Assembly: GCA_030704615.1 (NCBI GenBank)
Contig: CM060732.1
Location: 44,082,001 to 44,146,000, forward strand
Length of the DNA stretch: 64,000 bases
Reading direction: 5' to 3'
Source of the DNA: Takakia lepidozioides
Lineage: Eukaryota; Plantae; Bryophyta
Part shown: piece by piece, positions 3,271-62,905 of the stretch
Layout of the letters: every line of letters starts with the position of its first letter
Position numbering within the stretch: position 1 is the stretch's first letter
Program-made: the position numbers and the translations under genes
The notes under the pieces: model-generated
The model's database searches: none
Seen by the model: the letters and a program-made list of their open reading frames with translations, nothing else
What the model was told of the DNA's origin: nothing

Positions 3271-3319
3271 ATGCCAGAAGAGGTATTGTGGACTCCCTCT
3301 CTTGATCCTCTTCCAGAGG

Positions 3320-3806
3320 TTGTGGTCATGGTTGAAGTGCCTGATTTTATCAACTGTGCCGCTGTAGCTGTTGCCTTTAGTTGACCATCTACCCATGCAG
3401 GTTTCTTGTAGCTATTGATCCACAGGGAATCATATGTAATCTTGTGCTTGAAATCTGGCCCTCTTGGATGCACACTCTACCCCTGCTCCTTCAGCTATCC
3501 ATGCCTCTGCACAAATCATGCATTCATCCTTGCCTTGCTGCTAACAATAACAGCCTAGATTTGTTCTAGGAAACACCCAACTCAGCTTATCACACTAGTT
3601 CCTATGCTCATTGCGTCTGCTACTCACTGTAATCCAACATGCATCCACCTTTTTGCCTCGATTGTCCCACCATTGACTGGGGTCAGAAAAGTATTCTTTC
3701 CACAGCTTCTCCTCGTCTCTCTTACCTGTTTCTGGATACTTTGGCAGTATCATGTCAAAGTCACTCCAACTATCAAAGGTTCGCTCAACCAGCTAACTTG
3801 CAGAAT
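3320..3806 (-). pseudogene. OSB-type PDF-motif fragment (two exons plus intron)
   Basis: DEEKLWKEYFSDPSQWWDNRGKK followed by a GT donor at ~3648, then HPRGPDFKHKITYDSLWINSYKKPAWVDGQL at 3473-3380. Confidence 0.75.
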
Positions 3807-4129
3807 TCCCCGGGGGGTGCACCAAGGGTTAATGTACCTATCACATGCGTGAACAGAAGGGGGTTAATTAAATACCCCCACATACAGACTATGTATATTG
3901 AAAGGGTCTGAAAAAATCCTTATATATATATATATATATATATTTGAGCATAAGTTACATATTTGGGTGTATAGCATACTGGTAAGGTCTCTAATTACGT
4001 GTCGCGACATCGCGTGCTCAAGCACCTTCTGCGTCTTTTTTTGTGCGTCGTTTCTCTTTTCCGCCTCACTCGCTAAGCCCTATCTTCCGCTGGGCTGCGC
4101 GCTCTCACCTTGCTGTGCGCTTCTTCCTC

Positions 4130-4478
4130 ATGTTTACCAGGTTCTTGGGAGGTCTTAGCAGGCCGTGTGTCAATCAGCGTCTGCTTAGCTGCACCGTGGT
4201 GGAGGCATGTTGGTTCTCACAGAGCCATCCGATAGTACCTGACTATAGACACAAGCAGCACACACAAGAGGTCCTTTTGGATTGATGGTCGATCAAATCC
4301 TCCATGGGTCATGACACAAGGTCAAGGACAATGTGGTGAGTGCATCTTCTTCTTCAACCTATTTCTGCCTGTTTTACCCTCTCATCAGATTCGGCCTTGA
4401 GATGCGTATTGAAGTCTGTAAATTAGCTTGCTGGGTGGATCCGTGGTGGTTAGGAGTGACTTTGACAAGTTACTGCTG
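4130..4478 (+). pseudogene. Captured 5' piece of an OSB-like gene: putative organellar presequence, half PDF motif and intron
   Basis: ATG at 4130 gives MFTRFLGGLSRPCVNQRLLS...PDYRHKQHTQEVL, then after a frameshift WIDGRSNPPWV. 4290-4478 is an inverted copy of ~1383-1560. Confidence 0.55.
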
Positions 4479-5645
4479 CCAGATGCTCTGGTTTGGGGGA
4501 CCTTGCTTGCTGCTGCCAGAATTCATGGGGATGTGGAGGTAGCAGAATATGCAGCAAAATCTCTTCTCAAGTGCGATCCCAACCACCATGCAACTTATGT
4601 GCTGTTATCCAACATCTACGACGCATCTGGCAGGTGACAATATGACACAACATGATGTGGTTTCATGGAGGACCATGATTGCAGCATATGCTCCGTATGA
4701 GTATGGCACGGAGGCTGTTGAGATGTATGAACAAATGCAAAATAAAGGGCTAACGCCCAACAATGTTACATTCACTTGTGTTCTCAATGCATGGCCAGCC
4801 TAGGAGCCTTGGAGAAAGGCAAAGATGTCCATGCTGACATCATTAAATCTGGAATTGCATGCTACATAAGGAGACTACGCTTGTGGACACGTATGCAAAA
4901 TGTGGGAGCATAAATGATGCGCGTCCAGCTTTTGACAATTGGCTAAACGAGAGATAGTATCATGGAACACCATGATCGCAGGGTGTGCTCAACATGGATG
5001 TGGCAAGGAGGCTTTCGAGATATACGAGAGATTGCAGCAAGACAGGATGGAGGCTTTGGAGACCTATGAGCAAATGATGGGGGAAGTGGTGAAGCCCGAC
5101 CACATCACGTTTGTGTGCGTTTGCAGTGCATATGCAAGCCTGGCAGCCCTGGAAAAGGGCATGGGTGCATCGCCAAAGCTGGAATTGTACCAGATGTGGT
5201 TCTGAACAATACCCTCGTGGACATGTATGCCAGATGTGGAATGCGATGATCGCAGGATATGCCCAGCAACAGGGTGCACACCTTCGTTGTAGATGACAAG
5301 TTGCATTCCAGAATTAAGGAATCCATGCTAAGCTGAGAAGATTGTATGGGAAGATGAGGAGGCGGGGTATGTGCCTGACAGGTGCTTTGTATTGCATGAT
5401 GTGGGGAGAAGGAAAATGAATTTTCTCTTTGCCACCACAGTGAGAAGCTGGCCATTGGTTTTGGGCTGATCAGCATTACCCCTAGGACGCCTCTCCGTCT
5501 CATCAAGAATCTTGGAGTGTGTGGTGACTGCCACACCTCCACCAAATTCATCTCAAAGATTGTTGGCCGAGCAATTGTTGTACGGGACGCTAACCGCTTT
5601 CACCACTTTGAAGATGAGATTTGTTCTTGTGGTGATTATTGGTGA
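4479..5645 (+). pseudogene. PPR-DYW RNA editing factor fragments (E motif, PLS motifs, DYW deaminase domain)
   Basis: PDALVWGTLLAAARIHGDVEVAEYAA...YVLLSNIY (E), then PPR motifs, then [11 protein letters not shown]...[10 protein letters not shown]...[20 protein letters not shown] with the stop at 5643-5645. Frameshifts are present, the PG box is missing and the module order is scrambled. Confidence 0.92.
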
Positions 5646-15814: not shown

Positions 15815-16633
15815 CTAGTGGTATGGGGGCCGTTGGCTGTGACTACTCCCAGCCGCCCATTGACTCAACACATCTTGGGTAGTCAATTGACCCTGATTGT
15901 TTAGGTTGGGGTTCTGAGGCACAATGTTGTACAGGGACTGCATGGTGGCAGGGTAGGAGAGCTCAGGCGCCTGCATCGCCACTGCCGGTGATGCCGAAGC
16001 CGCCATGGTTGCCAGGCCTTCCTCATCATCCAGCGGGAGGCGGTCGTAGGTCGCACCCAGAAAGGACGCTGCGATCACTAATACTGGGCCTGCTGCCATG
16101 AGCACACCCACAACACTCCCACCCAGAACTTGACCCGCTGCACCCGCGAGCGAGACGGTCAGGCCTGTGGAGGGTGCGGGGGAAGGCGGGGGCAGGAAGG
16201 CACCTGAGAGAGAGATGAGCTCAAACCTTCCATGGAAGGTAACAGTAGCACCTGGAGAGGTCGGCTGCCGCAGCGTAACATTACACACAGTCCCACTCCC
16301 TCCAATCACACACACCCCCCGCTGCCTCCGCCTCGCAAACGACGCCACACTCTCCCCCACATCGCACCCCCCTGCAACCTCCAGCACATGGGGCCGCATC
16401 GCATTGCCATTGTCCCGAGTTATGATGATGGGCGGCTTCGGCTTGTTCTTCGATCCCGGTGGCCTCCCCCTCGGCTTGCGACTCCCCTCCCCTGGCGGAA
16501 CGTTGCCACCAGGCCCTCTTCCCTTCCCCCGCTTCCTCCCTGATCTTCCCTGCCCACTGCTCCCACTCTGCTCCTCGTCTGAAGTGGCGCCCGTATGCGA
16601 GGGCCGCTCTGTGCCAGCCTCCACCCCGGCCAT
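15815..16633 (-). CDS. AHL: AT-hook motif nuclear-localized protein (single AT-hook + PPC/DUF296), 272 aa, intronless clade-A type
   Basis: [24 protein letters not shown]-hook and a PPC domain with [10 protein letters not shown] and [10 protein letters not shown]. First in-frame ATG at 16633 (MAGVEAG); the longer track ORF starts at a non-ATG codon. Confidence 0.93.
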
Positions 16634-31925: not shown

Positions 31926-32160
31926 CAATATATTAAGTAAGGTAGTTTGTTTTGGTTGGTTTTGTTTTGCCGTTGAGATCTCCAAGACCGGAAGGCCTCC
32001 GCCCGTGCTCTTAATATTGCTGGAATGCCCTCAATGAGTTGGGGTGCTGGTTTCATAAATTTTTGGACCTACAGTGGGGGAGATATTAAATTTTAAGTAT
32101 TTTTTGTTGCTGGAAATTCATGAAAAATAGCAAATTGTGTTTTTTCTGAAATATTGGGAG

Positions 32161-32860
32161 AAGCTTCTGAAGCAACTCGATTAGCTACTGCACCAGGTGC
32201 ATTCCCCCGAGGGTGTCCCGAAGTTCCTCCACCGAACTGTAATACAAAATCATCTCCAGAAATTTCGGTCGAAGCGGGCATATGCCGAACATGAATACCT
32301 CCCGAAGCTACAGGTAAAACACCTGGCGAAGAGACCCAGTCCTGAGTGAAATAAATACCATGACTTCGATATTTTTCGATGTAATCATCACGAAGTGGAT
32401 CAACGAACCCTGGAGTTACTTGACGTTCCCCTTCAAGTTTACCTACCACGGTACCAGAGTGGATATGATCTCCACCGGACAGACGTAATGCTTTGGCTAA
32501 TACACGGAAGTGCATACCATGATTTTTTTGTCGGTCGATAACTGCGTGCGTTGCGCGGTGAATGTGAAGGAGTGGACCATTGTCTCGGCGATAATGAGCT
32601 AAACTAGTATTTGTAGTAAAACCTCCTGTCGAATAGTCATGCGTGGCGATAGGCACTCCCAATTCTCTAGCAAATTCCGCCATTTTCATCGTGTCTTCAC
32701 ATGTACCTGCAGTAGCATTCGAGTAATGCCCCTTGATCTCGCCTGCTTCGGCTTGAGATTTATAAATAGCTTCTGCTACGAATAAGGAACGATCTCTCCA
32801 TCGCGTGAAAGGTTGGGAATTTACGTTTTCATCATCTTTAGTAAAATCAAGTCCACCACG
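32161..32860 (-). pseudogene. rbcL: Rubisco large subunit, internal fragment (NUPT, unedited)
   Basis: [18 protein letters not shown] through [15 protein letters not shown]; many S/P/R/T codons where L/F/W/C/M is conserved. Confidence 0.97.
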
Positions 32861-33976
<1,116 letters not shown>

Positions 33977-34517
33977 TTCTCCGACCCTTCCTGCCAACCG
34001 AAGTGGACAGCTAATGCGTTCCACTTCTCGAATCAGGTTCTATGGTCAGTCTGTGACCCCTGGGTGCCTTCGGCACCCCTGGGGCGATCTCGTAGTTCCT
34101 ACGGGGTGGAGACGATGGGGTCGGTCCATGGCTTTTCGTTCCTTTTGTCACATCGTGCTTGAAGGGTTGAAGAGAGATAGTGCATCGAGCTGTTCGCAAG
34201 GGCCAACTCGATCCTCTTTCCCAGGGATTCTAGATGAGGTAACCCTAGGAGAGCTGCCGACTCCAACTATCGCCCATGTACGATCCATACTAGATCTACT
34301 ACCCATCCTACCTCCTCTACGCTTTCGACAGCCCATCTTTGTCTCAGTAAAGTTTTTCAGTGGCATGTTCCAGTCCTCTTCCCCATTCCTGGGAGAAAGT
34401 TAGCCACCGGTTTAGGTAAAAGATACTATCATTACCGCCTAGACAATTAGGCATCCGACCCGTAAGTGCAACGACCCAATTGTAAGGGCGGCGCTCTACC
34501 AACTGAGCTATATCCCT
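33977..34517 (-). pseudogene. trnA-UGC: trnA-UGC 5' exon (34517-34480) and 5' part of its group II intron (NUPT)
   Basis: Reverse complement AGGGATATAGCTCAGTTGGTAGAGCGCCGCCCTTACAA followed by TTGGGTCGTTGC (intron start); the anticodon carries a G-to-A change. Confidence 0.88.
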
Positions 34518-34586
34518 GTACCCGAGCCAAGTGAAGCATGCATGAACAAATCAGATGTTTTTTTTTGGGATTTCCCTTGGTGCAGC

Positions 34587-34675
34587 TGGGCTATCCTGGA
34601 CTTGAACCAGAGACCTCGCCCGTGAAGTAAATTCTCGCACCTACGATATTATCGATATTATCCAATTGGAAGAGA
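34587..34675 (-). pseudogene. trnI-GAU: trnI-GAU 3' exon (34621-34587) with the end of its intron (NUPT)
   Basis: Reverse complement GGGCGAGGTCTCTGGTTCAAGTCCAGGATAGCCCA, positioned upstream of trnA as in the plastid rRNA spacer. Confidence 0.88.
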
Positions 34676-34682
34676 ATTCATT

Positions 34683-34754
34683 GCCCCTTTAACTCAGTGG
34701 TAGAGTAACGCCATGGTAAGGCGTAAGTCATCGGTTCAAATCCGATAAAGGGCT
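34683..34754 (+). tRNA. trnT-GGU: Plastid-derived tRNA-Thr(GGU) (NUPT copy)
   Basis: GCCCCTTTAACTCAGTGGTAGAGTAACGCCATGGTAAGGCGT...GGTTCAAATCCGATAAAGGGCT; cloverleaf with GGT anticodon. Confidence 0.95.
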
Positions 34755-36794
34755 TATCACGTTTTTCGGATAGATAGGGGAGAAATAAAAAAATAAGTAA
34801 AGAGCTATATTACCTAGTAATTTTATTTCATAAATGAAAATTAGTAATATACTTAGAATTTAATGAGAATTTTAGATTCATAATATTCTTAGAAATATTA
34901 TGAATTAAAAAGAAATCTATTATAATCTTTTTTGGATTAGATCTATTCGAAGTGCAAAGAGAAAAACAATTGAAATGTATAGATGTAATTTTTAGTAAAC
35001 TTGACTTATTTCTTTCCAGATAATTTGGCTACTCTTATAATGGATTTCACTAGAAAATTTGAGGTAATAAATAATCAAATTTTTCAATATATTCAATATT
35101 TATTATCAGTTATTAGACACTAGCTTTTTCACGACGTTTCTGAATGATTAGTATGAATAATTAGGATGTAGGTCCACTGAAAACGAATATTTCACGAAAA
35201 AGAAAAAGAAAAATATTGAAAAAAAAGTATAATAATGTAAGAATAAAAAAAATTCTAGAATCTATCTGTAGGAAGGAAATAAATAACAATATTTTTTTAT
35301 TTTTTTTAGTAAAAAATGTATTTACATTTAGATATATTCTTTATTTCGCGGAGAAAAAATGTATATGTACTATAAAAAAAATTCTATTTTGGTAGAATAG
35401 ACCTGAAAAATAAACTGAAAAGGTCGAGTGAGGAACATTGAGTCAGAGGGACATGAGAAGATATTGGGAAGGAAAGAAAAGCTTACCTACCTTCTGAAAC
35501 TAAAGGTTTTTGAATTATTCAAGTCTATTTTGAAACTAAATAACTAAATAAAATTTCTATATCGGATTATTTCAATTGAAACCAAGAACCGAGACATAAG
35601 ATGAAATGACGCATCTAGCTAATTGGTAATTGGTTCGGTCCGAGAAAAAATATCTACGTTAAAAAAAAAATCTTCAAAAAACAATAGAAGGGTTCCTCGT
35701 TCAAAATAATCTATAAATTATTCGAATTTCATATTTTTTAAGGTGCTTAGAAATGATTGAAGTAGTTGAATAGGAGAATTACACTACGACTATAGCCATT
35801 GGAAAGTCTTCCAAAGAACCAAAAGGTTTATTTGATAGTATGGATGACTGGCCAAGGAGAGACCGTTCTGTATTCGTGGATCAGTCTGGTCTATCGCTTT
35901 TCCCTCGTGCCCATTTCGCCCCAGGTGGATGGTTCACAGGTACAACCTTTGTCACTCCACGGTACACTCATGGGTCGGCTAGTTCTTATTCAGAAGGTCG
36001 TAACTCTTCAATCGCTGCAGTTTCTACTCCTGCTAATAGTTTGGCGCATTCTCCGTCGCTGTTATGGGGTCCTGAGGCACAGGGAGATTTTACCCGTTGG
36101 TGTCAATTAGGAGGTTTATGGACCTTTGTTGCTCTTCATGGTGCCTTTGGTTCAATAGGCTCTATGTTGCGCCAATTCGAACTTGCTCGATCTGTACAAT
36201 TGCGCCCCTACAACGCAATTGCATCCCCCGCTCCGATTGCTGTTTCCGTTTCCGTATCTCCGATCCATCCATTAGGTCAATCCGGTTGGTTCTTCGCACC
36301 TAGCTTCGGTGTAGCAGCTATTTCCCGATCTATTCCTTTTTCTCAAGGTTTTCACAACCGGACTTCGAACCCATTCCATATGATGGGAGTTGCTGGAGTA
36401 TCGGGAGCTGCTCCTTCACGTGCTATTCATGGTGCTACCGCGGAAAATACTCTGTTTGAGGACGGTGATGGTGCAAATACATTTCGTATTTTTAACCCAA
36501 CTCAATCTGAAGAAACTCATTCCATGGTCACAGCTAACCGCTCTCGGTCCCAAATTTCCGGTGTTGCTTTCCCCAACAAACGTCGGTCACATTCCTTTAC
36601 GTCATTTGTACTAGTAACTGGTTCGCGGATGAGTGCCATTGGAGTAGTTGGTCCAGCCTTGAACTTACGGGCATATGACTTCGTTTCTCAAGAGATTCGT
36701 GCAGCAGAAGACCCCGAATCCGAAACTTCCTACACTAAAAATATTCCTTCGAACGAGGGTATTCGTGCTCGGATGGCAGCTCAAGATCAGCCTC

Positions 36795-38240
<1,446 letters not shown>

Positions 38241-38297
38241 AATAACAAATAGAAGAAAAGTTTTCGTAGATTTTTCTTTTTCTCCTAAGTCTCTCAC

Positions 38298-38325
38298 AAT
38301 GGCTCGGCTATTTAGCCGAGCCATT
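38298..38325. terminator. Plastid 3' stem-loop between psbC and trnS (NUPT)
   Basis: AATGGCTCGGCTA-TT-TAGCCGAGCCATT perfect inverted repeat. Confidence 0.7.
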
Positions 38326-38378
38326 ACATCTCTAATACGAAAAAATAGATTGATTTCAGAAACGTTTTTTTTTTTTAA

Positions 38379-38467
38379 AGGAGAAAGATGGATTCGAACC
38401 CTCGATAGTTTTGATAAACTATGCCGGTTTTCAAGACCGGAGCCATCAACCACTCGGCCATCTCTCC
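38379..38467 (-). tRNA. trnS-UGA: Plastid-derived tRNA-Ser(UGA) (NUPT copy)
   Basis: Reverse complement GGAGAGATGGCCGAGTGG...CCGGTCTTGAAAACCGG, long variable arm, GGGTTCGAATCC. Confidence 0.94.
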
Positions 38468-38743
38468 AAAAAAAAACATCATTATATTTCGATTCTTTAG
38501 GTAGAGAAAAGGCCACTATTATAATTATAATATAACATCAAATTTTTATTCTGTAAAAGATTCATAGAGAAAATGAATATATCGATTCTTTGTAAAATCA
38601 ACTAAAAAAAGCTAAAGAACTTTCAGTGCATGTATATTCAAATTTTCTCTATAATGCTTCTGGCTCGGTAAGTAAATTATTGCCAGATAGGGATCAAATG
38701 GTATAACTTATTTCATTTCTTCGAAGCTTGGAGAATCACAACT

Positions 38744-48503: not shown

Positions 48504-49790
48504 ATGGAAGAAATGAGTCGGAATATGACAGAAATCCCTCACACTACAGCGCCAATCTTTTTTACCGATTCCAGTATTGAAGCGCAGACTCAAATAGTGC
48601 AATTTCTCCTTGCATCCTCAACACTACAAACCTACAGATTGTCTTGTAATCTTCTATCACTCCTCAATCCCGGATTGGGAGACTAGGTGGAACCACGGAG
48701 CACCACTTGGTTTTCCAGATTTCTGCTAACCGAATTTTACGAAGATCGTTGGATTCACAATTTTCGAATGTCGAAGTAGACTGTCTTCTACATTTGTGAT
48801 AAAGTAAGGCCTTTCATCAAGAAACAAGACACCAAGTACAGGGTTGCAATACCTGTGGAAATCAGAGTATGTTGTGCGCTTTTCAAGCTGGTTCAAGGAA
48901 CGAATCTTCTGTTGTGCAGCGAAATGTTTGAGATAGGGAGATCAATTGTATTTTTGGTCATACGAGAAGTGGTCTGTGCCATCAACGTGGTGTTTCAAAA
49001 TCAGATTGTATGGCCTACTGGAGCCTTACAAATGGTAATGGACGAGTTCAAAGAGTGGTGTGGACTGCCAAGTATCCATGGGGGCATAGATGGTACACAA
49101 ATTGCAATAGCGAAACCCTCAGGACCATTCTCGGAAGACTACTATTACCAAAAATCGGGTGGATACTCAATTGTAGCACAAGCTGTAGTGGATAGGAACA
49201 AAAGGTTCACAGACATCTGTATTGGATTACCAGTAAGTGTAAATGATGGTAGAGTCCTCAGAAAATCCAGTCTCTACCGCAAAGCTCAATATGATGAGTT
49301 ATTTCATAGCAACAGAGGATCTCAAGATGGCATTGAACCATATCTGCTTGGGGATAAATGCTACCCGAACATCAGCTGGATGATGACCCCTCACAAGGAG
49401 GTCGGAAACCTTATTATTCTTCAGCGATTATACAGCAAAAAACACAAACGAGGAAGATCTGTCGTGGAAAATTCTTTTGCATTGCTTAAACAGACATTCA
49501 GGGAAATTTTGCACAAACCAACCTGCATGTTACCTTGGTCCCCGACGTGTTCGTTTGTTGTTGTATCCTTCATAATCTCATCAGGGATAGAAGGTCTGAT
49601 GATTTGGAAAGACCGATGAGAATAATTGAGATGGAAGTTCGGCAATTACCACAACCGATGGATCAGCCAGAGAGAGAAGAAGCAGTCGATGACAATCTTC
49701 AAGTAGGAAACGGTGGTATATAGGGGAGAGAATTATCGGGTGCAGCAAAACGCCAGGAATTGGCAGTGTATCTTGATCATCAATGTAGTT
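48504..49790 (+). pseudogene. Harbinger/HARBI1-like DDE transposase
   Basis: FRMSK, GGIDGTQI, GYSIVAQAVVD, VNDGRVL, YLLGDKCYP, RSVVENSFALLK; stop near 48777 and frameshift near 49515. Confidence 0.9.
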
Positions 49791-49939
49791 TGTTTTAAGG
49801 TTCGTGATCCTCAAACTAAATTTGAAAATGCAAAAGAAATGTCATCTTTGCAAGCGTTACTGGAAACTTGAAAAGAACCGTAGCTACTATGGGAAATTTT
49901 CACCTATGCATGTTTGCATGTAAAGAGATTATACTAACT

Positions 49940-51335
49940 CTATGTACGAGAATCTTCATCTGAAGATGTTCTTTCAGCTACTGGGTTATCACCTCTTGCA
50001 CGCTGGTTGCCTTTCATGAATGCTTGTCCCATTATCTTGGTCAAGTCACTGATCGCATTCACCATGCTATTCTGAGTATGGTTCACTTCTTTGTCGTGCA
50101 TCTTGAAATACTCCAGTTGAGTCTGAAGCATGAACTCCTGTGCTTTGCTCCGTTTCTCTTCAATCATCAAGTTTGTCGTATGTATGCGATCAATTGAAAC
50201 TCAACAAGGAGTTTGGAGCCTTTCTCGGTCGCCTCTACCATGGAGGAGTGGACTGATGAAGATTTCCGTTTTCTGCCGTATTTCCTACAGGTGCAGGAGG
50301 TGGAGTGGTTATGTGAGGCAGCGTAGCAACATTGCAGAAGAGTACTGGCACCCTGTGGCAAATGAGCGTTGATACCCTGAAGCAAAGATGCACTAGTACC
50401 CTAAGGCAAATGAGCATTAGGATTGTGCTGGGAGAGAACAAAATTGCGTTTCATAGGACTAGGCCCCACAGAGTCGGTAATGACGTTGTTGTCAGATTCC
50501 ATTCCAGGTAAGGAATTCACATCTTGTGTATCCGGCTCTGTCGACCCAGAAAGCTGAATAGGAATGTAGACTGTGTCTCCATCGTCCATCAAGTCTCGGG
50601 CATGAGGAGGTCTGAAAATTGGTCTTGCTCCCATGAACGCGTTCATCATGTCATAGAATTCTCAACTAAAGACTCTCGGGAGGTTCAATGAAGCTTTGTC
50701 ATGTGGAGATAAGTCCCAATATTCTGTATTACTACCAGTCCCATTTTGGTAGTCATTGACTTGCTTGAAATCTCCATAGATAGCACCCCACTTGTCCTTG
50801 CAAGATGCCCCATTCTGGGATGCACAGTAGAATTTCCATCGTTGTTCACCGCTACAACAATCTTCCTCCATTTAGAAACAGCGGATTCAAACTTGTCTCA
50901 CAGATCAACCTTGTACATAGCTTCCATATGCTCATCCTTCTTTGCCTTGATGAGAGAGACTATTTCAACGTACTCCCAGTTTGCCTGCCGGGGTTTCCTG
51001 GTCTTGATCTCTAGGGTTAAATCAGAATCGACATGACTCTTGCCTCTACCAGATGGTTTTGAAGCTCTGCGGCCTTGTGCAGTTCCCGTAGATGAGAGGA
51101 CTTGAGCACTGGGTCCAGAAGGATATGTACAGAACATTGAACAATTTCCAAATATGAACCCCATATCAACATGAATTCAACTCTGAATTGAAATATTGAA
51201 CTGTAAGCTTTGAAAAAAAAATGCTCAGGTGAATCTCATACTTGGTTCAACGTTCTCCTTGTTCTGGCCGTCCTCAAATGATTCAAGACCAATGTCGTCC
51301 AAGCTACCTGCAGACATGTTGTGCAAGCTGCTCAT
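49940..51335 (-). pseudogene. Harbinger Myb/SANT (trihelix-like) DNA-binding protein
   Basis: RQANWEYVEIVSLIKAKK, SCKDKWGAIYGDFKQV and YWDLSPHDKASLNLP plus a C-terminal coiled coil; stops and frameshifts. Confidence 0.8.
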
Positions 51336-52542
51336 GATCAAATCAAGTGAAATCATTGCCTAAAATGAGAAAGAACTAGAATGTGCAGTAGTTGGAAGTG
51401 TCCATATATTGGGTTTTGTGCTCAGTTACAGCTTGAGAAAAGAGAGAGAGACGAAGATATGAGAGGCGGGGAGATCAGATGAGAAGCGGGGGCGGGGAGA
51501 GACGGAGGCGGGTGCTAAGTTAATCTTTCATTTGCAGCGTTTTTAAAGTTATCACCAGATTTTGAATTGAAATTTTGATTTTATCTGCCACCCTGGTGTT
51601 ACGTAGCAAAATAGATATCACCGCGGTAACACAATTGCCAAGTAGGATCCACATCAGATTTGGTGGTACCACACACCGTAGGTCTAAACAGTCACATGTT
51701 AAGTTCCTGCGTACCACTGAGATACTAGTGATGTATCTTAATAGATTTAAGATCTGAAAATTGGGTTGGGTTGGTTTTTATATTTCCAGCGACATGGAAG
51801 AAGAAAAAAAATACTTTGGAAAAAAGATTCTTCCTCCCTAGCCTCCCTTGTTTCCTCTCTCTCATGGGAGAAATGGGGCTTAGTTGAGTGGACAAATTAG
51901 TGCTCAACCTAGTCGCTCTAGGCTTCACCATTTCCAACTTTTAATGACAAAACTAATCACAAATATTGACTCAAAGCTTGAACCTAGGCTAGTTTAGTCT
52001 TTGAAGTCAAGTGTTAGTAGTTCACCACAAAAAACACAAGAAGACCTAGTGGCCAACAACACAAAGGACTTCCCACCTTGTTAGCAATCCTCTAACTAGC
52101 TTTGTTAGAGACCATACAAGGTTAGTATCCTTCAATCCTCTCAAAACAACACCAAACAAACCCTTGGGCCTCTTGGCCACTAAGGGGGTTAGTCATCTCC
52201 TTTCCCAAAAGTTCCACCACCCTTTTGGTTAGTAGCTCTAGACAAGGGTTAGTACAAGGACTTGCAACAAAACAAAGCACAAAAGGATAAAACAAACAAA
52301 ATGGACAAAAGAACATGTCATGGTTTTAGTCATGGTTAACTAGAATTACCTACTTCTAGTTAAGAGAGCTCTTGAGTTACAAGACTTTGCAGAGGTGGAG
52401 AGCTTAAGGAGAGAGCTCTTGTATCACAAAGCTTGCATGGTTTTGCAAGGTAAGTGCTTGTATGTGCACTAAGGGTTTGAGAGATGAAGAAGGTGTTTCT
52501 TACTATACTCTACAAACCCTAGTCTCCATACTCTTCAAGAAA

Positions 52543-53727: not shown

Positions 53728-55000
53728 GTGCCACCAATTGCTGAGGAGAGTGCCGGTACGAGCATCAGCGATACTAGTGGGTATACAAGACGGGGTTTGC
53801 GGTTTAGGCCACCTTCACTTTCAGTGTCTTCTGAGGAAGGTTCAGACTCAGAGTTAGAAGGATTCTCGCCAAGGGTGCAAGCCATTTCCGTGCCATTGTT
53901 GTGGGATACGATGGAGGAAATGTATGGAGCTACCAAGGGGCCACGTTGGTACCCTGGAGCTGTGGGCACCATCGAGCTTGATGATTTCATACATAAGTTT
54001 GATAGTTGGTGTGATTTGCAGCAGATGCGCAATCCACAACTGTTTACGTCTTTTATGGCGTGGAAGGGGCTGTTTCAGCACCTTGAGGGGCCGCCCATGG
54101 ATGACTACCATGAGTTTAGGCGGAGACATGAGGTGGAGATTGAAGAATGGCGGGTGTATTGGTCACCTGACTATGTCTCCATCACTAGAGGCACAAGGGC
54201 AGTGGTGACACCGGCAGCTACACCGGCAGCTACTGCAAGCAACAGTGGGACGTCAAGTGGAACAGGAGCTGGGAAGTCCACCCAAGCTCCTGCTGCAGCA
54301 CCAACACCCGTGCTTGTCTTTTAACCCAGTTGTGGAGTTCTTCGAGGAGTTGAGGAGAAACTACCAAGGGATAAGGACAAAGAAGTTGCGGAGCTTGCAA
54401 GAGTTCCAACGAAGGTCTAGTGAGAGTTTGATGGAGGCTTACACTCACATGAGGCGTTTGGTAAATGTAACCCAAGGGGTTACAGAAGCTCAAGCAGTCC
54501 AGTTCTGGTATGGGATCCTGGACAAGGAATTGAGGAGAAGGGTGCGGGATGCAACTCTCCTACAAGTGGACCAACCCACCTTAGCAAATGTGTTTTTGCT
54601 GGCAGAGTGGATAGAGCTCGATATGGTGGAGGAGCGAGTGGTCATGGTGGGGTTTGGTAAGGAGACACAACGAAGTGGGGCTCCTGGCCAACAACAACCA
54701 CTACCCCAACATGCTCAAGGCAAGCAGGGGGCTCAGGTGAAGCCCAGGGAAGGGCCGAGAGGATCTCAATTGCAGAGGTCACTTCCTTCATTCTCAGGCC
54801 AACAATAGTCGGGTGTGACATGTTGGGATTGTGGAGGACCCCATGTTAAGAGAGATTTCCCGGAGAGAGGCAAAGGGCTGGCACAAGCACAGCCTACACA
54901 ACTACAATGTGGGCATTGTGGCAAGTATGGGCATGAAGAGGCCCATTGTTATGACTTGCATCCTGAGCTACGGCCAGGCCAGTTCCAACCAAGGCATGGT
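53728..55000 (+). pseudogene. Gag-like region with two zinc knuckles
   Basis: FFEELRRNYQG...LQEFQRRSSESLMEAYTHMRRL; CWDCGGPHVKRDFP and CGHCGKYGHEEAHC; frameshift and stop present. Confidence 0.8.
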
Positions 55001-55699
55001 AGATAGGTTTGCCCAGCTAGAGCAACGACTTGCTACCATGGCCACTACTCATGTTGCGCCAGCTCCAAGGCCTGAGGTTCAAGCCCCACCTGCACAACCT
55101 CATATGCCTAGGGAAGACCAGATTGGTATGGGCTTCATGTGTGGAGCCGCACTTGCAGGACCATTGCATGTGGACTCTGTAGCTGCAGTCACTCAAACAG
55201 CAACGGGTGCTCCTGAGCCAAGAGGAGCAGATGTGGATTTTGATCCACAAAGAGGGGAAGCAAGTCAACAGACAAGGCTTCCACAGTCTTTCACATTGGC
55301 TAAGACAGTGCCAACTACGCCATCGATGGTACCCGCTCGCCCAAGTGTGTCAGAGGTAGAGCCACGAGTGCCAGTGGGGAGAATTGGTGTAGCCCGGGAA
55401 ATGCCAGTGGGTGGTGCTGCAAAGAAGGGTGCAACCAGTACATTGTTGGGGGCGGCTACGGCAATTTGCCAAGCTCCATTGTTTTCTGTCATGACAATTG
55501 CAATGCCGGGGATGCGGCCAGCTGCAGTGTTTAGACTGGCAGCTGCACTCTATGAGAGTGGTGATGCATTGGCACTATCTGCGGGGATAGCGGATCAGGT
55601 GCATGGATGCCCTGGATTCAAGGGTGAAGACAACCACAGCTGCGCCATGGCAAACGGCAGCTGCAAGGTTGCAAGAGTTGCCAGCTAGACCAGCCATTG

Positions 55700-56160
55700 A
55701 GCGGAGTATGGTGACTCATGGGGTAGTCCTGGTGGACAATCAGGATGGTATGTTTCAGTTGGGTGGCCCGGCCAGGATGAGGTATAGGCCACTGCGGGTC
55801 TTGTTGGACTCGGGAGCACAACCATTGATGTTGGGGAGAGCAGCAATTGCAGGCTTGGGTCTTACAGAGGCGGATTTGGAGCCTTGCCCTTTCCAAATTC
55901 AAACATCTTTGGGTGGTTCAGAGAAGGCACGAGGGATTACACGCCATGAGCTCTTCATTCGATTGCAGCCAGATCATCCTACAAATGGTTTTGTCATGAG
56001 AGCTAAAGTCATTGTTACAGACGCGATGTCTTATGATGTACTTGTTGGTGTGGCTGTGTTATACCCGATGGGTTTTACTTTGGACTTTTGGGAGAAAACG
56101 ACATCCTACAGGGAATGGCAGTCAGGGGATGGTCGGCATGCACCGCTCCCAGTGCGGTTT
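55700..56160 (+). pseudogene. Retropepsin aspartic protease domain
   Basis: VLLDSGAQP at 55798 and downstream YDVLVG(V)AVL. Confidence 0.85.
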
Positions 56161-56514
56161 ATTGGGAATGTAGCGGTGGATCATAGGAACATGATGTCCA
56201 CATTGGCTGCATTCTCAGGGGTGGTGGCTTGGGGTGGTGAGCTCTTGGAGTGCAATAGCCATGCGGATGATAGGCCACCACCCGAAGAGGACAAACAATT
56301 GGCATACAAGGCTGATTTGCTTCCTCATGTGTCTGTTCATATTCCACTGTGGGGTACAGTTAGGAATTTGCATCGAGTAACAGGCGAGTGTGTGCACCAA
56401 GCATGGCAGGAGGCCTATCCATTGGTGAGTGAGGGGAGTTCAGTGACATCACCTGGACCTCCTCAGTTAGCTCCTTTGGATATAGTGCCCATTACCTGGC
56501 AACCACCTGACTCA

Positions 56515-57450
56515 GGGATTTGTTTGCTAGACCTGTTTGGAGGCATGAGCACTGGGCTTGCAGGAGTGTTGCAAGCTGGGATTAAAGTACGCAAGTACTT
56601 ATATGTGGAGAAGGATGAGATAGCTCGGCGTATTTCTATGCGTCACATCGCTTTGCTCACACATCGGTATCCTGAGTTGTTGCCTCTCTCAGCAATTCAA
56701 GGGTATCAAAAGGCCTTGCCAGCAGACATTACCTTGCTGGGGGCGGATGATTTGGACCGGCATGGTGCCATTGACTTGGTGATAGCTGGATGGCCTTGCC
56801 AATGACACTTCCCGTAGGTCATGGGAACGGCTTGCATGATGCACGATCGCATTTGTTTTGGGAGATGTTGAGAGTGTTGCGTGACTTGCAGACGAGGCAA
56901 GTGCAACCTCTAGCCTATATCTTGGAGAATGTTCTTCTTATGGGGGACTCTCGGGCCAGGGTTATGGCCAGTGTGCATCAGGTGCGGTCTTGGATTGGAT
57001 TCAGCGGTGGTATCACAAGCGCATCGACCTCGATTGTGGTGGACCAATCTTGCACCACCAGAGCTGCTCAAGAGAGCATACGATTCCATTCAACGGCCAC
57101 CCAATTTCATAGTTGAGGGCATTTTGGACCAAGGGAGGCAACCACAGAGGGTGCGACATGATGACCGTCCACCTCTAGCAGTGGTAAATCGAGTGGGGCA
57201 GCCATGTGCGGCCTTGCCTACGCTCATGAGCTTTCCCTCGTCACATGCTTTTCGAGACAATGGTCCTGGGTTGATTTGGGACAGTGTGCTACATCAATTG
57301 GTGGACCCCAATGCAGATGAGCGAGAGCGGGCAATGGGATTTGCCACGGGCACTACAGCTGTGCCAGCTCTGTCAGAGGCATCATGCCGACATGTGTTGG
57401 GTCAAGCAATGGATCTAAATTGCTTGACATGGGTCATTGGCTTGTGCATG
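56515..57450 (+). pseudogene. C5 cytosine DNA methyltransferase domain (DNMT3-like, canonical motif order) within the polyprotein
   Basis: I LLDLFGG, II YLYVEKD, III ADIT, IV DLVIAGWPCQ, V/VI RSHLFWEMLRVL...YILENV, VIII AHRPRLWWTNL, IX ERERAMGF..GTT, X RHVLGQAMD. Stop at 56803 and two frameshifts. Confidence 0.92.
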
Positions 57451-57899
57451 GCTGAGCAACGGAGGTTGCAGACAGTGGTGGCTACTTCTGCACTTCTATT
57501 TGGTATTGTATCCCCTCTGCCAACCGGGACGGTTGAGGCAGTGAGTGGGGGCGAGCACAGGATCATGGGGTGCAAACACCCATGGCAGATGTGGGATGAG
57601 ATGCGCAAAGAGAGAGTCATTGGATCTCTCAAGCAGCAGTATGAGGAGTGGGGAGAGCCATACACGGAGGATCAGTTGGAGGCCAAGATGGCCAATATTT
57701 TTGAAGAGGTTGAGAATGTTTTTTCCCCAGAGGATGTTCTCAAGGTGGCTATGGCGGAGCAAGTGGAGGCTACGCCACGGTTAGGGTGGGCGGATAAAGC
57801 CCAAGAGGTTGCTATCTAGCAACCAAAGGATGTGAATCCTACTTCCAAGCCTGGTGTACCCAAGGTTGCAGTCACTGAGGACAACTGGGAACCAGATGT

Positions 57900-59310
57900 T
57901 GGACCTACAGTCACCGGAGGAGAGAGACGGAGGATCCATCAATTTCTAAGGGCTTATAGAAATTGCTTTGCCTTCGGTTTGAAGGATTTGGGGAGTTTGA
58001 AGGGCCAGGAAATTTGTATTGATTTGGCAAGTGACACGCCAATCTTTCGGAGGCCCTACCGGTATAGTGACATGAAGAGGTCATTGATCCAGTCACAGAC
58101 TATGGAGTTGTTCGAAGCTGGATTGGTGGAGTTATCAGGCGGGGAGTATGCCTCGGCAATGGTGATACCAGCTAAGAAGGATATCTATGGCAATTGGACA
58201 GAAAGAAGGATGTGTGGGGACTATCGTCCTGTGAACCGTCAGACTAAGTCCGATAGATATGCCATGCCAACTCCAGATGAAAATCTTTGATACCATTGGG
58301 CATGCGAAGGTGTTTAGCACATTGGACTTGCAATCCAGTTACCACCAGTTGCCAATCAAAGAGGCTGACAAGCAAAAGACGACATTCTGGGGGATTGACC
58401 AACATGGGAAGGATTGTTTGTACCAATGGCGCTTCCTATCGTTTGGGTTGAAGAATGCTCCTGCAGAGTTTCAGAGGGTTATGGATAACATTCTCGCGGG
58501 GCTAGACTTTGCCCGGTGTTACATTGATGACATCATTGTCTTTAGTGCTACGGTTGAGGAGCATGAGAGACACCTTCAGGTGGTGTTTGAGCGCTTGAGA
58601 GCGCATGGGTTGAAATTGCACCCCTGGGAAGTGCAAGTTCTTCCAAAACCAGATTGAGTATCTGGGCCACATGATATACCCTGGAGGATTGGGTGTTCAA
58701 AAGACGAAGGTGGAGGCCATTGCACGCATTCCACGCCCCATAGATGTTAGCAGAGTTCGTGCTTTCATGGGGTTGGCAAACTACTATCGATGGTTTGTCA
58801 AGGGATTTAACAGCATTGCAAAGGCTCTTACTAAGTTGACCAAGGTGGGTCAGGAGTGGCAGTGGGAGGAGGAGCATGAGGAAGCCTTTGAGGAACTCAA
58901 GGCTCGATTGACTTCTGCACCTATTCTGAGGCGGCCTTTCCAGCTACATACGGATTGGAGTATGTTGGGGATTGGAGCAGTGCTCACACAGATGGATGAT
59001 GAGGGAAGAGAGTTCGTAGTGGCATATGCTAGCCGCTCAAACAATGATGCCGAGGCGAAGTATAGTTCCTATGAAGGGGAGTGTCTAGCTGCGGTATGGG
59101 CAATGACACATTTCAAATGCTACCTCTATGGCAATCTCTTCACCATTGTTACAGATCACCAACCATTGAAGTGGTTGATGGAGTCAGACAAGCTTACAGG
59201 GAAGCTTGCACGGTGGGCACTTATACTTCAAGAATACGACTTTTAGGTGGTGCATCGAGCCGGTATTGTCAATTGGGATGCAGATGGATTGAGTCGTAAT
59301 CCATGCACGA
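57900..59310 (+). pseudogene. Ty3/Gypsy reverse transcriptase and RNase H
   Basis: RMCGDYRPVN, FSTLDLQSSYHQ, FGLKNAPAEFQR, CYIDDII, LHTDWS, YSSYEGECLA, TDHQPLKWL, KLARWAL. Confidence 0.96.
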
Positions 59311-59359
59311 GCGAGCATGATGATACTGGAGCTCGGTGGCATGGTGAGACGGATGAGGA

Positions 59360-59626
59360 GAGGGTCAAGATGGCATGGTATGGAAGGACCATGTGTGCAC
59401 TTGTGCGCCATGTCACCTTCCATATGTGGATGGGAGGATAGATCCCAACCTTGCAGTGGTACCTGCAGGGTTGCGTTGCATGCTATGTGGGCATGCTGGT
59501 GGTGCCGCGACCATGTTGGTGTGTGACAAATGCTCAAGGGGGTGGCACATGGGATGCTTGATACCGCCACTTGAGGAGGTTCCTAGTGGAGAATGGTTGT
59601 GTCCACGATGCCTTGGACATAGGTAG
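59360..59626 (+). pseudogene. Polyprotein C-terminal tail with PHD finger
   Basis: C4HC3 pattern CMLC-x11-CDKCSRGWHMGCLIPPLEEVPSGEWLCPRC at 59477-59611. Confidence 0.92.
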
Positions 59627-59970
59627 TGGGCATGACAATGGTGGAATTGACAAGTGATCCAAGGTCTAGCTGATGGGAGCTCAACGTCGTGGATATTTAA
59701 TTGAAGATCGTGGATTGCAGGAAGGCGAGTAATGATGGGGCTACTTTTGCACCCGGCCTCTTGATCTATGGACTTTAGATATTGGAACATGTGCGATTGA
59801 AGACCAAGCGATGATTTTATTGAGATGGATACTTGTCAGCTATCCGGTGTTAGAGGGACCTAATCACCAGCTAGGGGGGCGATTGTGGCATAGCTTTCTA
59901 GGATTGTGTGCTTAGAATGTATGGTAGACAGCGATGTATGTTGTGGCACGATGCTTAGGTGCACGATAGT

Positions 59971-60420
59971 TGTCATGGTTTTAGTCATGGTTAACTAGAA
60001 TTACCTACTTCTAGTTAACTAGGACATTTTGGATATTTATATTTGTATTTTGTTTGTTGGGACTTCATTTGGTCTCACATGCCAAGTGAGGTGTCAAACC
60101 TCACTTGGGACATGGGGATGGGTTTTCCCCTTGTGAGTGTTGAGGAGGGCTCATCTTGTAGTTGAGCCTCCATGAGCCTCTCCCACCTCCATATCTCTAG
60201 GTATTGAGAGGAGTGTGGTGAGGGCTTTGTAGGGTGGATTCCTTTAGCAAAGGTGCCCTTGGCTTGACTTAGTTTATGTGATTGAGTGGATTCATGAGTG
60301 GAGTGTTTCCATTGTGTGTTCACTTTCATTATCATTGTGGCATAACTTTCTAGGATTGTATGCTTAGAATGTGTGATGGACAACGATGTATGTTGTGGCA
60401 TGATGCTTAGGTGCACGACA
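59971..60420 (+). repeat. LTR-like unit (450 bp), TGTCATG...CACGACA
   Basis: 6/7 terminal inverted match; a related copy lies at 62642-62905 on the minus strand. Confidence 0.7.
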
Positions 60421-60439
60421 GCTGTCATGGTTTTTGAGC

Positions 60440-61520
60440 TTCATTTTTGAATAATTTGAGACGAGCTCACAAAACGATTAGAAGTAGTAGGGGAAGTTCC
60501 GGCCCATAAGAAATTACGAACAAAAGTCTTGATCTGTTTGATTATTTACCAAGCCTAGATCATTGCCCCAAGGCTTACAGAGTCAGGAGCAGGAGAGTCA
60601 GGAGGCAAGGACATCCAAAGCATTGATAACATTGAGATGAGAGCTATTGTCAATTAAGTGAACATTATCATCAGCATAGAAAGAAGCCTTGATAGGCATG
60701 GATCTAGGAATAGCTAGACCTCTGACATTAGTGACAGAGTCTAACAGATGTCCAAGACCACCCGTAGCAATGATGAAGAGGAAAGGGGCAAGAGGACAGC
60801 CCTGTCTCACAGAGAGGTGGAGCGGAAAGGATGAAGACAGGGCACCGTATCACAATGACTCTAGTGCCCAGGGATGTAGAAACAAAAAAGAATTTTGACC
60901 CAGGCTAGAAACATACCATTAATACCCACTTTTTTCAAAGCACTAAGGAGAAAAGGCCAATCAACATTGTCAAAATCTTCTCAAAGTCCAACATAAGCAT
61001 CGAGCCATTGGTTGGTTTGCAACGAAGGCTTGGTGCAATACTTCATGAACTCCAGAATCAAACGATTCCTAAGGAAGCCAGATTGTTCAGGGTGAACAAT
61101 TTTATTAAGCAAGGGCTGAAGCCAAATGGCTAAGGCCTTAGCAATAATCTTATAAACACAATTGAACAAGGTTATGGGCCTATCATTAGAGATTTGGTCC
61201 CGATTCCCATTCTTATATATGAAAGTAATAACTCCTTGCGAAATTTTAGAGGGCAAAATACCCTTAAGAAGCACGTCATTGGCCATGGCCAGGAAGTCCT
61301 CCCCTACATCCTGCCATAAGGCCTTAAAGAACTCAATAGGCATGTCGTCCAAACCAAGAGCTTTCAGAGGACTAAGCCACTCCACAGTTTGGAGAAGTTC
61401 GAGAGAGGAGAAGGGAGTAGAAAAGATGCTCTGCTCCGCTGATGACAGAATAGAGGAATGGAGGCAAGAACTCTGGAGCGATTGACAATCTCCACAGAAC
61501 TGATAAATTGTTTGCCACAC
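60440..61520 (-). mobile_element. L1-type LINE reverse transcriptase remnant
   Basis: KALGLDDMPIEFFK, RPITLFNCVYKIIAKALA, HPEQSGF, RQGCPLAPFLF, FYADD. Confidence 0.9.
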
Positions 61521-62060
61521 TCAAGAAGCATTCAATGGGCCCGTACTCTACCCACTCCTCCCCCTCTGCCCTCACTATCCTCCTACTTACACAACAAAGA
61601 TCTCCTAACAATCCCCACCCCCTCCTTCAACTCCCTCCTGGCGTCACACTTCTGGCCACCATTGAACCAAACCAGCTACACCATTTACATAACCCGCCCT
61701 TCCCTAAATACCTCCGTCGCCTGGAACCCACCATGACGTCATTACTATAGGTCCAAAACATTTCCCCCACCTCCATTCCCATCTCCTCCCCTCCCACCCT
61801 ACACCATCTACTCGTACGTACATGGGGGATGAAAGTTTCCACCCAGCCCTCTCTACGCACCCTCACTCCATCCCCTTTGACCCATCACCCTCCTATTTCC
61901 CAAGGTCAACCCAAGCAAGGCCTGGATGAGGGCGCTGCCGCGCCCCCCTCCTGCCCCTCTCTTGACTTATACTGACCCACCGATTTCCCATCAACGTAAG
62001 CCGCTCAAATTCTCTCCATCTCACTCTCATTATACCGATGGCTCCCTATCCAGCTCTAAC

Positions 62061-62500
62061 CACTACTATGTTTAGGGGGGGTTAGCGACGTCGGGACCCC
62101 GGGCACACCGGACGTGACGACCCTCCTGCGATTGTAGCGCCGCGCAGGCGCCCGACCCGGAAATTGCGACGTCGGCCTGTCGCCGCCGCGCCGGTGACGC
62201 TTCGCCTGCTTGCCATTCCGCCACGTCGCTGCTGTTGGGGCATGACCCGCCAGCGAGCTGGGGGTTGCGACGCCCGGGCGTCGCACGTACCCTTTGCGAC
62301 GCTCCCGCAAGGCTGGACTACCGAAAATTGCAACAACATCCCCTCACACTTAGGCGCGTGGGGAGGGCCGAGCCAGCTCGCGCTGGGGTTTGCGACGTCC
62401 AGACGTCGCCGCAATGCCACAATGGCGAGGTTGCGATTCCTTAGCAGTGGCAGGCCTGTTGGGGCGTCACAAGTGCCCTCTTGCCTAGGGGTCTAGGATT
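62061..62500 (+). mobile_element. CACTA left terminus with GCGACG subterminal repeats
   Basis: CACTACTATGTTTAGGGGGGGTTAGCGACGTC followed by many GCGACG/CGTCGC copies. Confidence 0.7.
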
Positions 62501-62641
62501 GGGGATTGCTGCTACGTAATAAAAAAAAAATTGCCGTGTTTTGTTCGGTGAATTCGACCCTTGCACCACTACATCCGTGCAAAATATTAGTCCACTTAGC
62601 CAAGTGAAAACATTCTAGAGTGGAGAGAAGTGCCTCTTGTT

Positions 62642-62905
62642 TGTCGTGCACCTAAGCATCGTGCCACAACATACATCGTTGTCCACCATACATTCTAAGC
62701 ACACAATCCTAGAAAGCTATGCCACAAGATGAGCCCTCCTCAACCCTCACAAGGGGAAAACCCATCCCCATGTCCTAAGTGAGGCTTGACACCTCACTTG
62801 GCATATGAGACCAAATGAAGTCCCAACACACAAAATATAAATATAAATATCTAAAATGTCATAGTTAACTAGAAGTAGGTAATTCTAGTTAACCATGACT
62901 AAAAC
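62642..62905 (-). repeat. Internally deleted solo copy of the 59971-60420 LTR
   Basis: The reverse complement matches 59978-60157 joined to 60336-60420 through TTGT microhomology. Confidence 0.85.

Follow-up and report, generated by a model that had tools for sequence, protein, structure and literature searches.

A Gypsy-type retrotransposon copy with a DNMT3-like cytosine methyltransferase in the moss Takakia lepidozioides, and its relatives in liverworts, mosses and green algae

KnitGypsy-Dnmt3 of Klebsormidium nitens is a Gypsy-type element with an unpermuted DNMT3-like methyltransferase (MTase) domain between protease and reverse transcriptase (RT). A figure legend (Fig. 4), on whose wording our comparison of the repeats is based, gives it DIRS-like repeats with Gypsy domains, its DNMT is under purifying selection (Ka/Ks < 0.2), and the DNMTs of the Klebsormidium elements are placed separately from the host gene (PMC5890265; this and the other articles cited by accession were available in part, and our statements refer to those parts). 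Elements of this kind, including the line on DIRS-like repeats, are therefore already published for Klebsormidium. The available text describes no target duplication, priming site, PHD finger or integration model, and of the 13 green species in its survey table Physcomitrella is the sole bryophyte (PMC5890265). Since 2018 the question has been why a transposon keeps the class of enzyme that silences it, in known hosts that are hard to work with. Our literature search, whose scope lay outside transposable element databases (Repbase/Dfam), subscription papers and supplements, returned no land-plant or chlorophyte report of such elements, and the available parts of PMC11982613, bioRxiv 10.1101/363937 and PMC6453930 do not mention them. 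Here we analyse a 64,000-nucleotide stretch of the Takakia lepidozioides genome (assembly GCA_030704615.1, contig CM060732.1, positions 44,082,001 to 44,146,000; hereafter the window), which almost certainly contains a dead Gypsy-type retrotransposon copy that has lost its integrase and belongs to a family with a DNMT3-like MTase. Unlike KnitGypsy-Dnmt3, its host is a land plant.

The element extends from 52316 to at least 60434, with a displaced right end at 62642–62905 on the minus strand. The original prediction had placed it at 55603–59626, which proved too narrow, and the open reading frame (ORF) ending at 59626 encodes a PHD finger. The domains are ordered Gag, protease, DNMT3-like MTase, RT, RNase H and PHD; the integrase is absent, about 440 codons of it being missing relative to L066, an intact relative. 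As had been claimed, one uninterrupted frame (55591, with ATG at 55603, to 56805) leads from the protease motif LLDSGA (55801) into the MTase motifs LDLFGG (56527), YVEKD (56602) and GWPCQ (56788–56802) and closes at a TGA (56803–56805). The ENV motif, within ILENV (56919–56933), sits in a second frame, and AHRPRLWWTNL (57019), ERERAMGF (57319) and VLGQAMD (57394) are back in the first, giving the expected canonical order of motifs ahead of the RT. The RT carries YIDD at 58520, and Pfam recognised RVT_1 (E 9.6e-24) and RT_RNaseH (E 2.2e-37). The element is flanked by split repeats, A and B, of which the left one (A1) retains its first 48 nt, the remainder being substituted by other sequence. 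The individual parts are as follows.

52312–52315, plus strand: left 4-bp target-site duplication AACA, with its partner at 62638–62641 on the minus strand
52316–52363, plus strand: A1, the left end (TGTCATG...), 48/48 identical to 59971–60018, with no further match to A2
53911–54934, plus strand: Gag in several broken frames, with two CCHC-type knuckles at its end (54821, 54908); 57–70% to Marchantia ORF1 by tblastn
55783–56112, plus strand: aspartic protease (LLDSGA at 55801); weak Pfam match (E 0.0097), 57% to Marchantia
56515–57462, plus strand: DNMT3-like C5 cytosine MTase with motifs I, II, IV, VI, VIII, IX and X, a stop after PCQ and two frame changes
57817–57825, plus strand: in-frame TAG followed by CAA CCA, the end of ORF1 and predicted readthrough site (motif UAG-CAR-YYA from PMC3159437)
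58042–58688, plus strand: RT with two frame changes, placed by Pfam and relatives
58935–59297, plus strand: RNase H with one stop, placed by Pfam and relatives
59337–59402, plus strand: joint of the missing integrase, as judged against L066; sequencing run X1 has loose read ends at 59360
59474–59626, plus strand: C-terminal PHD finger and stop (PF00628, E 1.1e-11)
59869–59879, plus strand: polypurine-tract-like G run ahead of B1
59882–59968, plus strand: repeat B1, ending at the inner joint CACGATA-GT-TGTCATG (relatives CACGACA)
59971–60333, plus strand: repeat A2
60334–60420, plus strand: repeat B2, ending CACGACA, 79/87 identical to B1
60423–60434, plus strand: beginning of a third A, truncated at an inversion breakpoint
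62642–62905, minus strand: remainder of the third A (internally deleted) and B3 (ending CACGACA, 83/87 identical to B1), the true right end, moved by the inversion
62638–62641, minus strand: right 4-bp target-site duplication AACA

The stop after PCQ and the two frame changes within the MTase confirm that this copy is dead. In run X1, summed depth, which is not equal to copy number, was 0.7–5.9 x 10^5 over 53.1–60.4 kb, 1.2–1.5 x 10^5 over the MTase and 124–143 over the flank, from which we conclude that the MTase part is highly repeated in the genome like the remainder of the element. An X1 contig spans the right end into the flank with zero mismatches (60407–62090). The segment 52364–53100, which replaces most of A1, contains 41-bp tandem repeats and has an X1 summed depth 10–40x below that of the element body. 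The later 2.5-kb inversion (60435–62905) has its breakpoints in the third A of the element and in a long interspersed nuclear element (LINE), and a LINE frame reads across the breakpoint.

The original prediction had described the MTase as DNMT3-like and unpermuted, unlike the DRM enzymes, and both sequence and fold agree. The best PDB sequence matches of the L066 MTase were DNMT3A/B/C (E 7e-8); DRM matches were weak (E 0.007–0.06) and confined to motifs I–IV, and the permuted DRM order is not present. With a structural model of pLDDT 89, every listed Foldseek row was DNMT3A/B except one DNMT3C (best E 9e-18, TMq about 0.7). The enzyme shares its fold, its catalytic residues and the canonical order of motifs with the host DNMT3s of animals and non-flowering plants (PMC6453930). 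Unlike these, the element MTase is intronless, lies inside a retroelement, is 21–23% identical to human DNMT3A/B and lacks PWWP and ADD, neither of which was found by Pfam on L066 ORF1. The proposed Pfam check (PF00145) left the broken window piece under the cut-off (E 0.0011) and recognised the intact relative (E 1.8e-13). Among 263 MTase domains, a set biased to good matches because it was selected by a hidden Markov model at E < 1e-40, median column conservation was 49%. The motif IV Cys was kept in 262 and the motif VI Glu in all 263, and the two motif VIII Arg residues in 259 and 262; the S-adenosylmethionine-binding glycine was near-invariant too, across chlorophyte, Klebsormidium and bryophyte elements.

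Searches for relatives, also proposed earlier, found near-identical intact ORFs in Marchantia, the intact element L066, and further relatives in Calypogeia, Sphagnum and Klebsormidium. The C-terminal piece of the MTase retrieved 30 longer proteins, including 11 from Marchantia and one each from Calypogeia fissa, Sphagnum fallax and Hariotina. Five Marchantia proteins of 1278–1281 aa represent entire Gag-protease-MTase ORFs, with MTases 98–99% identical to P0001, and several intact Marchantia MTase ORFs are annotated as a “hypothetical gene”. Of 600 stretches matched in a metagenome scan, 316 were confirmed; in the best 80 of these, which were the ones used, the order was Gag-protease-MTase-RT-RNase H-integrase-PHD as far as the contigs extend, and the MTase end was followed by the RT start in 59. 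The intact L066 consists of ORF1 (1369 aa), the sequence TAG CAG TTA, and ORF2 (1047 aa) with RT, RNase H, H2C2, rve and PHD. Its integrase has D,D35E motifs, and there are no other long ORFs, only two short antisense frames inside ORF1. Sister copies thus carry the MTase, which is a family trait and not a one-off capture. Nei-Gojobori ratios of nonsynonymous to synonymous substitution (dN/dS), another comparison suggested with the original prediction, were 0.10–0.14 in four deep pairs and 0.23–0.70 in six pairs of close, mostly dead copies; between the window and Sphagnum-like copies they were 0.09–0.11 with dS near saturation, and RT dN/dS was 0.04 in the deepest intact pair. The MTase is under purifying selection in this family. 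A viral contig search returned only distant phage MTases (30 loci), the ESM Atlas only generic DNA_methylase clusters, and a representative search 530 matches at E <= 1e-30, with no host DNMT3s among the best 150.

A profile search yielded 118 proteins, including Klebsormidium KFL_009030040 (protease-MTase-RT-RNase H-integrase). In many of its matches, the named ones being from Hariotina, Tetradesmus and Chromochloris, the order was instead RT-RNase H-MTase-integrase-PHD. P0030, P0037, P0099, P0131 and about 70 further proteins are such chlorophyte-type elements, with the MTase between RNase H and integrase. Comparison of the chlorophyte with the streptophyte order indicates that the MTase shifted position inside the polyprotein. 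We built an MTase tree of 51 rows, after removal of five phage rows, a DIRS-like row and a long row, and a quick, midpoint-rooted RT-RNase H tree of 29 rows; in both, breaks in the window copy were coded as X and the rows covered no host plant DNMT3. In the former, the window copy groups with Marchantia, Calypogeia and Sphagnum in a clade of 12 rows (100/99), nested in one of 26 rows (100/98), and the chlorophyte-type rows lie on one side (100/99). The latter separates named chlorophyte from named streptophyte elements (99) with Klebsormidium, and so KnitGypsy-Dnmt3, on the streptophyte side; the main groups of the two trees are congruent. A wider MTase tree, likewise without host plant DNMT3s and with the five phage rows as outgroup, keeps the element MTases together against the phage MTases and one DIRS-like row (99; long branches). 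Because its MTase is only about 42% identical to that of Marchantia, KnitGypsy-Dnmt3 and the bryophyte elements are kin lineages and not one family. The suggestion that a Klebsormidium-type lineage survived into a bryophyte holds in that the lineage is common to Klebsormidium and moss elements; the Takakia copy is no lone survivor, since such elements are common in mosses and liverworts and have a large chlorophyte branch. We also noted a second distant lineage, L074–L110 (e.g., L075, 6378–15692), with like layout and ends and no stop between MTase and RT; L075 has ECQ instead of PCQ at motif IV. In L061 (504–4660), an otherwise intact element, Gag and protease-MTase overlap in different frames, which may reflect an assembly error, decay or a programmed frameshift.

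The MTase and RT of KnitGypsy-Dnmt3 share one ORF (PMC5890265), as they do in clade 2 and P0221, whereas a conserved stop separates them in the clade of the window element. Both an MTase end and an RT start were present in 60 rows; of these, 34 (window included) belong to clade 1, defined by at least 44% identity to the Marchantia MTase, and 26 to clade 2. The motif TAG/TAA-CAR-YY-[ACG], 69–76 codons ahead of the RT query start, was present in 30 of the 34 clade-1 rows and in none of the 26 clade-2 rows; the remaining clade-1 rows comprised one TAG-CAA-CCT and three without the motif. With near-identical loci merged, the counts were 26/30 and 0/23. All 36 clade-1 proteins tallied end 27–181 aa past the MTase. 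The few NCBI models that continue into the RT skip the MTase-RT linker, which they probably owe to false introns. UAG-CAR-YYA is the readthrough consensus of the tobamovirus type (PMC3159437), and the conserved stop is very probably read through, as predicted from its sequence context. Unlike in the tobamovirus case, readthrough here would set the MTase:RT ratio. Several points temper this prediction. The strict consensus occurs in five rows only, the window (TAG CAA CCA), L061, L066, L067 and L090; most Sphagnum-like copies deviate at the last base, with CAA CCC after the stop, and nine rows have TAA. Because many rows are near-copies, the stop represents about three lineages. An RNA stem 3' of the stop gave z below -2 in 3/5 and 3/8 folds, with a register that differs between clades, and in the window it was no better than shuffles (z 0.68 and -0.10). 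Because a conserved readthrough-type stop separates it from the RT, the MTase is likely made at the Gag level. The claim that the MTase is integral to the polyprotein and not a nested insertion is upheld by its shared position in sister copies and requires one correction: in clade 1 it closes ORF1 (Gag-protease-MTase) at the conserved stop, before the RT, and is therefore not simply a Pol domain.

The ends of these elements are also unusual for Gypsy. Self-comparison gave the layout A1 ... B1 A2 B2 in L064, L069, L075, L081, L083 and L089. A G-rich tract precedes B1, the boundary between B1 and A2 reads CA-nn-TG, and A2 runs directly into B2, such that the end of A is joined to the base right after the polypurine tract (PPT). 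All 15 left ends begin TGTCATG with no B ahead, and a 4-bp target duplication was present in five of the six loci with both ends, as well as in the window. The family has TG...CA ends and does not have two complete direct long terminal repeats (LTRs) at its ends; by layout it is a Gypsy-derived variant. The 15–17 nt after A1 are complementary to A position 164–165 in four of five loci (0/200 shuffles each), about 30 nt past a TATA box in three of those, and the fifth locus pairs 11 nt elsewhere. We take the former to be a putative Tf1-like self-priming site in the relatives. Upstream of the TATA box, repeat A in L064 (1679–2017) and L075 (6378–6668) contains several TTAGGG-type motifs, which resemble plant telo-box promoter elements. 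A 10-bp hairpin in A1 was considered as a recombinase site and rejected, since the A repeats of the relatives compared did not show it and since these elements have an integrase and produce target duplications.

Split direct repeats of this layout are typical of the DIRS order (PAT/Ngaro/VIPER), which, unlike these elements, relies on a tyrosine recombinase; here we find a DDE integrase, TG...CA ends and 4-bp duplications, and Pfam detected rve and no recombinase in the L066 ORFs. The protease-RT-RNase H-integrase order of the intact L066 is that of Ty3/Gypsy, and the solved structure nearest to its RT is that of Ty3 (E 3e-75). Tf1/Sushi and plant Tcn1 elements share the Gypsy domain order and an RNA 5' end predicted to be complementary to the site after the left repeat, but have ordinary LTRs and no described MTase (PMC7175516, PMC6317226). 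The chromoviruses Chlamyvir and Tcn1 differ further, because no chromodomain was found by Pfam in L066 ORF2, which has a PHD finger instead.

Based on these features, we propose the following cycle. The RNA would begin inside A1 about 30 nt past the TATA box and would self-prime reverse transcription like Tf1. Most ribosomes would halt after the MTase, supplying it one-to-one with Gag, and RT and integrase would be produced through occasional readthrough. Given a priming site after A and a PPT ahead of B, ordinary reverse transcription would yield a linear B-A...B-A cDNA without TG...CA ends. These ends would join to form a two-LTR circle, which the DDE integrase would open at CA-nn-TG inside the LTR, thus giving A...B-A-B, exactly the layout of integrated copies. 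The MTase would methylate the double-stranded cDNA, so that a new copy would arrive pre-marked, and the PHD finger borne by the integrase would bind unmodified histone H3 tails and so tether insertion to them. This finger is most like those of CHD4, PHF21A, KAT6A, KDM5 and UHRF1, which are readers of H3 tails unmethylated at K4. Because the MTase is fused to Gag and made with Gag, the element's own cDNA is its most likely substrate, and we lean slightly towards it as the main one; methylation of the element's own cDNA has also been proposed for Klebsormidium (PMC5890265). Taken together, the explanation as a whole, comprising the family, readthrough of the ORF1 stop and cDNA methylation, appears reasonably likely.

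As judged from integrated copies, it is quite likely that integration proceeds from a two-LTR circle opened within the LTR, and a number of observations count against this route. No circle has been observed; the junction pattern was recognised in 11 of the 25 rows with room downstream, L061 and L066 having a variant seen by eye; L081 lacks a target duplication; and the window shows no self-priming site, since its A1 is broken. The split ends could also arise during reverse transcription, if an extra strand transfer produced a linear A...B-A-B with ordinary TG...CA ends and no circle. Retroviral-type integrases normally use linear ends, and the third A-B unit in the window indicates that extra repeat units can form. 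None of the 15 left ends represents a copy opened at the other joint (A-B-A...B), for which the circle model must invoke a preference. However, a PPT ahead of B and a priming site after A predict B-A...B-A, the A2/B2 joint is the exact fusion of those two ends, and cleavage of two-LTR junctions by foamy virus integrase has been reported (PMC1180852); we consider strand transfer somewhat unlikely. As to the target of the MTase, it might act mainly on chromatin, methylating host DNA in trans or the site of insertion once imported, or silencing sister copies and so limiting harm to the host. Gag-level output would exceed the need of one cDNA, the PHD finger links the complex to nucleosomes, and insertion-site effects and self-restraint were both raised in PMC5890265. 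The absence of PWWP and ADD from ORF1 and the location of the PHD finger on ORF2 speak against such a role, which we regard as decidedly unlikely. Self-methylation, for its part, is not singled out by CpG depletion, the observed/expected ratio being 0.33–0.51 in the window element versus 0.55 in the whole window and 0.33–0.70 in four relatives. It is improbable that the MTase lacks activity as a DNA methylase and that its fold was kept for DNA or RNA binding or as a structural spacer. The motif IV Pro beside the catalytic Cys is replaced by Glu in 86 of the 263 domains, a third of the family, identity to DNMT3A/B is low, and the KnitGypsy-Dnmt3 enzyme did not methylate yeast DNA, a test that its authors call inconclusive and that human DNMT3B likewise failed (PMC5890265). 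The near-invariance of the Cys, the Glu, both Arg and the glycine from chlorophyte to bryophyte elements argues for activity.

The origin of the bryophyte elements allows for two further explanations. The window element, from a moss, is sister to liverwort plus Sphagnum elements (98/87), unlike the host relationships, and this position would mean old paralogy or transfer. Horizontal transfer, rather than survival from an algal ancestor, is consistent with this mismatch, with identities of up to about 75% between Marchantia and Sphagnum-like MTases and with the unassigned hosts of many tree neighbours. Old paralogy explains the mismatch equally well, because two deep lineages sit in moss-like DNA, and the RT-RNase H split of named chlorophyte and streptophyte elements also speaks against transfer, which seems unlikely. 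One-off capture of a host DNMT3 with neutral decay, or a nested insertion, would fit the dead window copy, the higher dN/dS of close dead copies and trees built without host plant DNMT3s. Given the identical position in dozens of loci and named species, the congruent trees, the deep-pair dN/dS of about 0.1 and the repetition of the MTase in the genome along with the rest of the element, it is scarcely credible and, as a one-off, already refuted. In its broadest form, our reading is of a Gypsy clade spanning the green lineage, from chlorophytes to mosses and liverworts, that would have carried a DNMT3-type enzyme since early green plants and relocated it within the polyprotein, the bryophyte branch adding a Gag-level MTase by a leaky stop and integration of a two-LTR circle cut inside the LTR; this we put forward tentatively, as somewhat short of an even chance.

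If correct, some retroelements of land plants, Marchantia among them, would methylate their own cDNA and integrate by a route that has not been described. Because Marchantia has several intact, 98–99% identical MTase ORFs, the question of why a transposon keeps such an enzyme becomes testable in a model plant, in whose met1 tissue transposable elements are derepressed (bioRxiv 10.1101/363937). In bryophytes, hidden element DNMTs could confound both the inventory of methyltransferases and the methylomes of mutants. The structure of the ends suggests a DDE integrase that acts at a site inside circular cDNA, a route associated with tyrosine-recombinase elements and also with some bacterial insertion sequences. 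Elements with the A...B-A-B layout would probably escape LTR finders that look for paired LTRs.

The remainder of the window contains several other features. An AT-hook gene (15815–16633) has its best named matches in mosses at 75–80% identity (Sphagnum 393–395 bits, Physcomitrium 387, Ceratodon 356), followed outside mosses by a lycophyte (307 bits) and liverworts (298 or less). The region 32000–38540 is a plastid-derived insertion with rbcL, chlB-like, psaB-like and psbD/psbC sequences and a tRNA-like stretch. Dozens of codons in its psbD frame specify Ser, Pro, Arg or His at positions that we take to be conserved Leu, Phe, Trp and Tyr, and the copy appears to be the unedited form from a very heavily C-to-U edited plastid. 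A cluster of degenerate pentatricopeptide repeat gene fragments, partly inverted, occupies 1–5600. The remains of a Harbinger-like DNA transposon are located at 48780–51200, with DDE_Tnp_4 at 48780–49619 and a Myb/SANT-like frame on the opposite strand.

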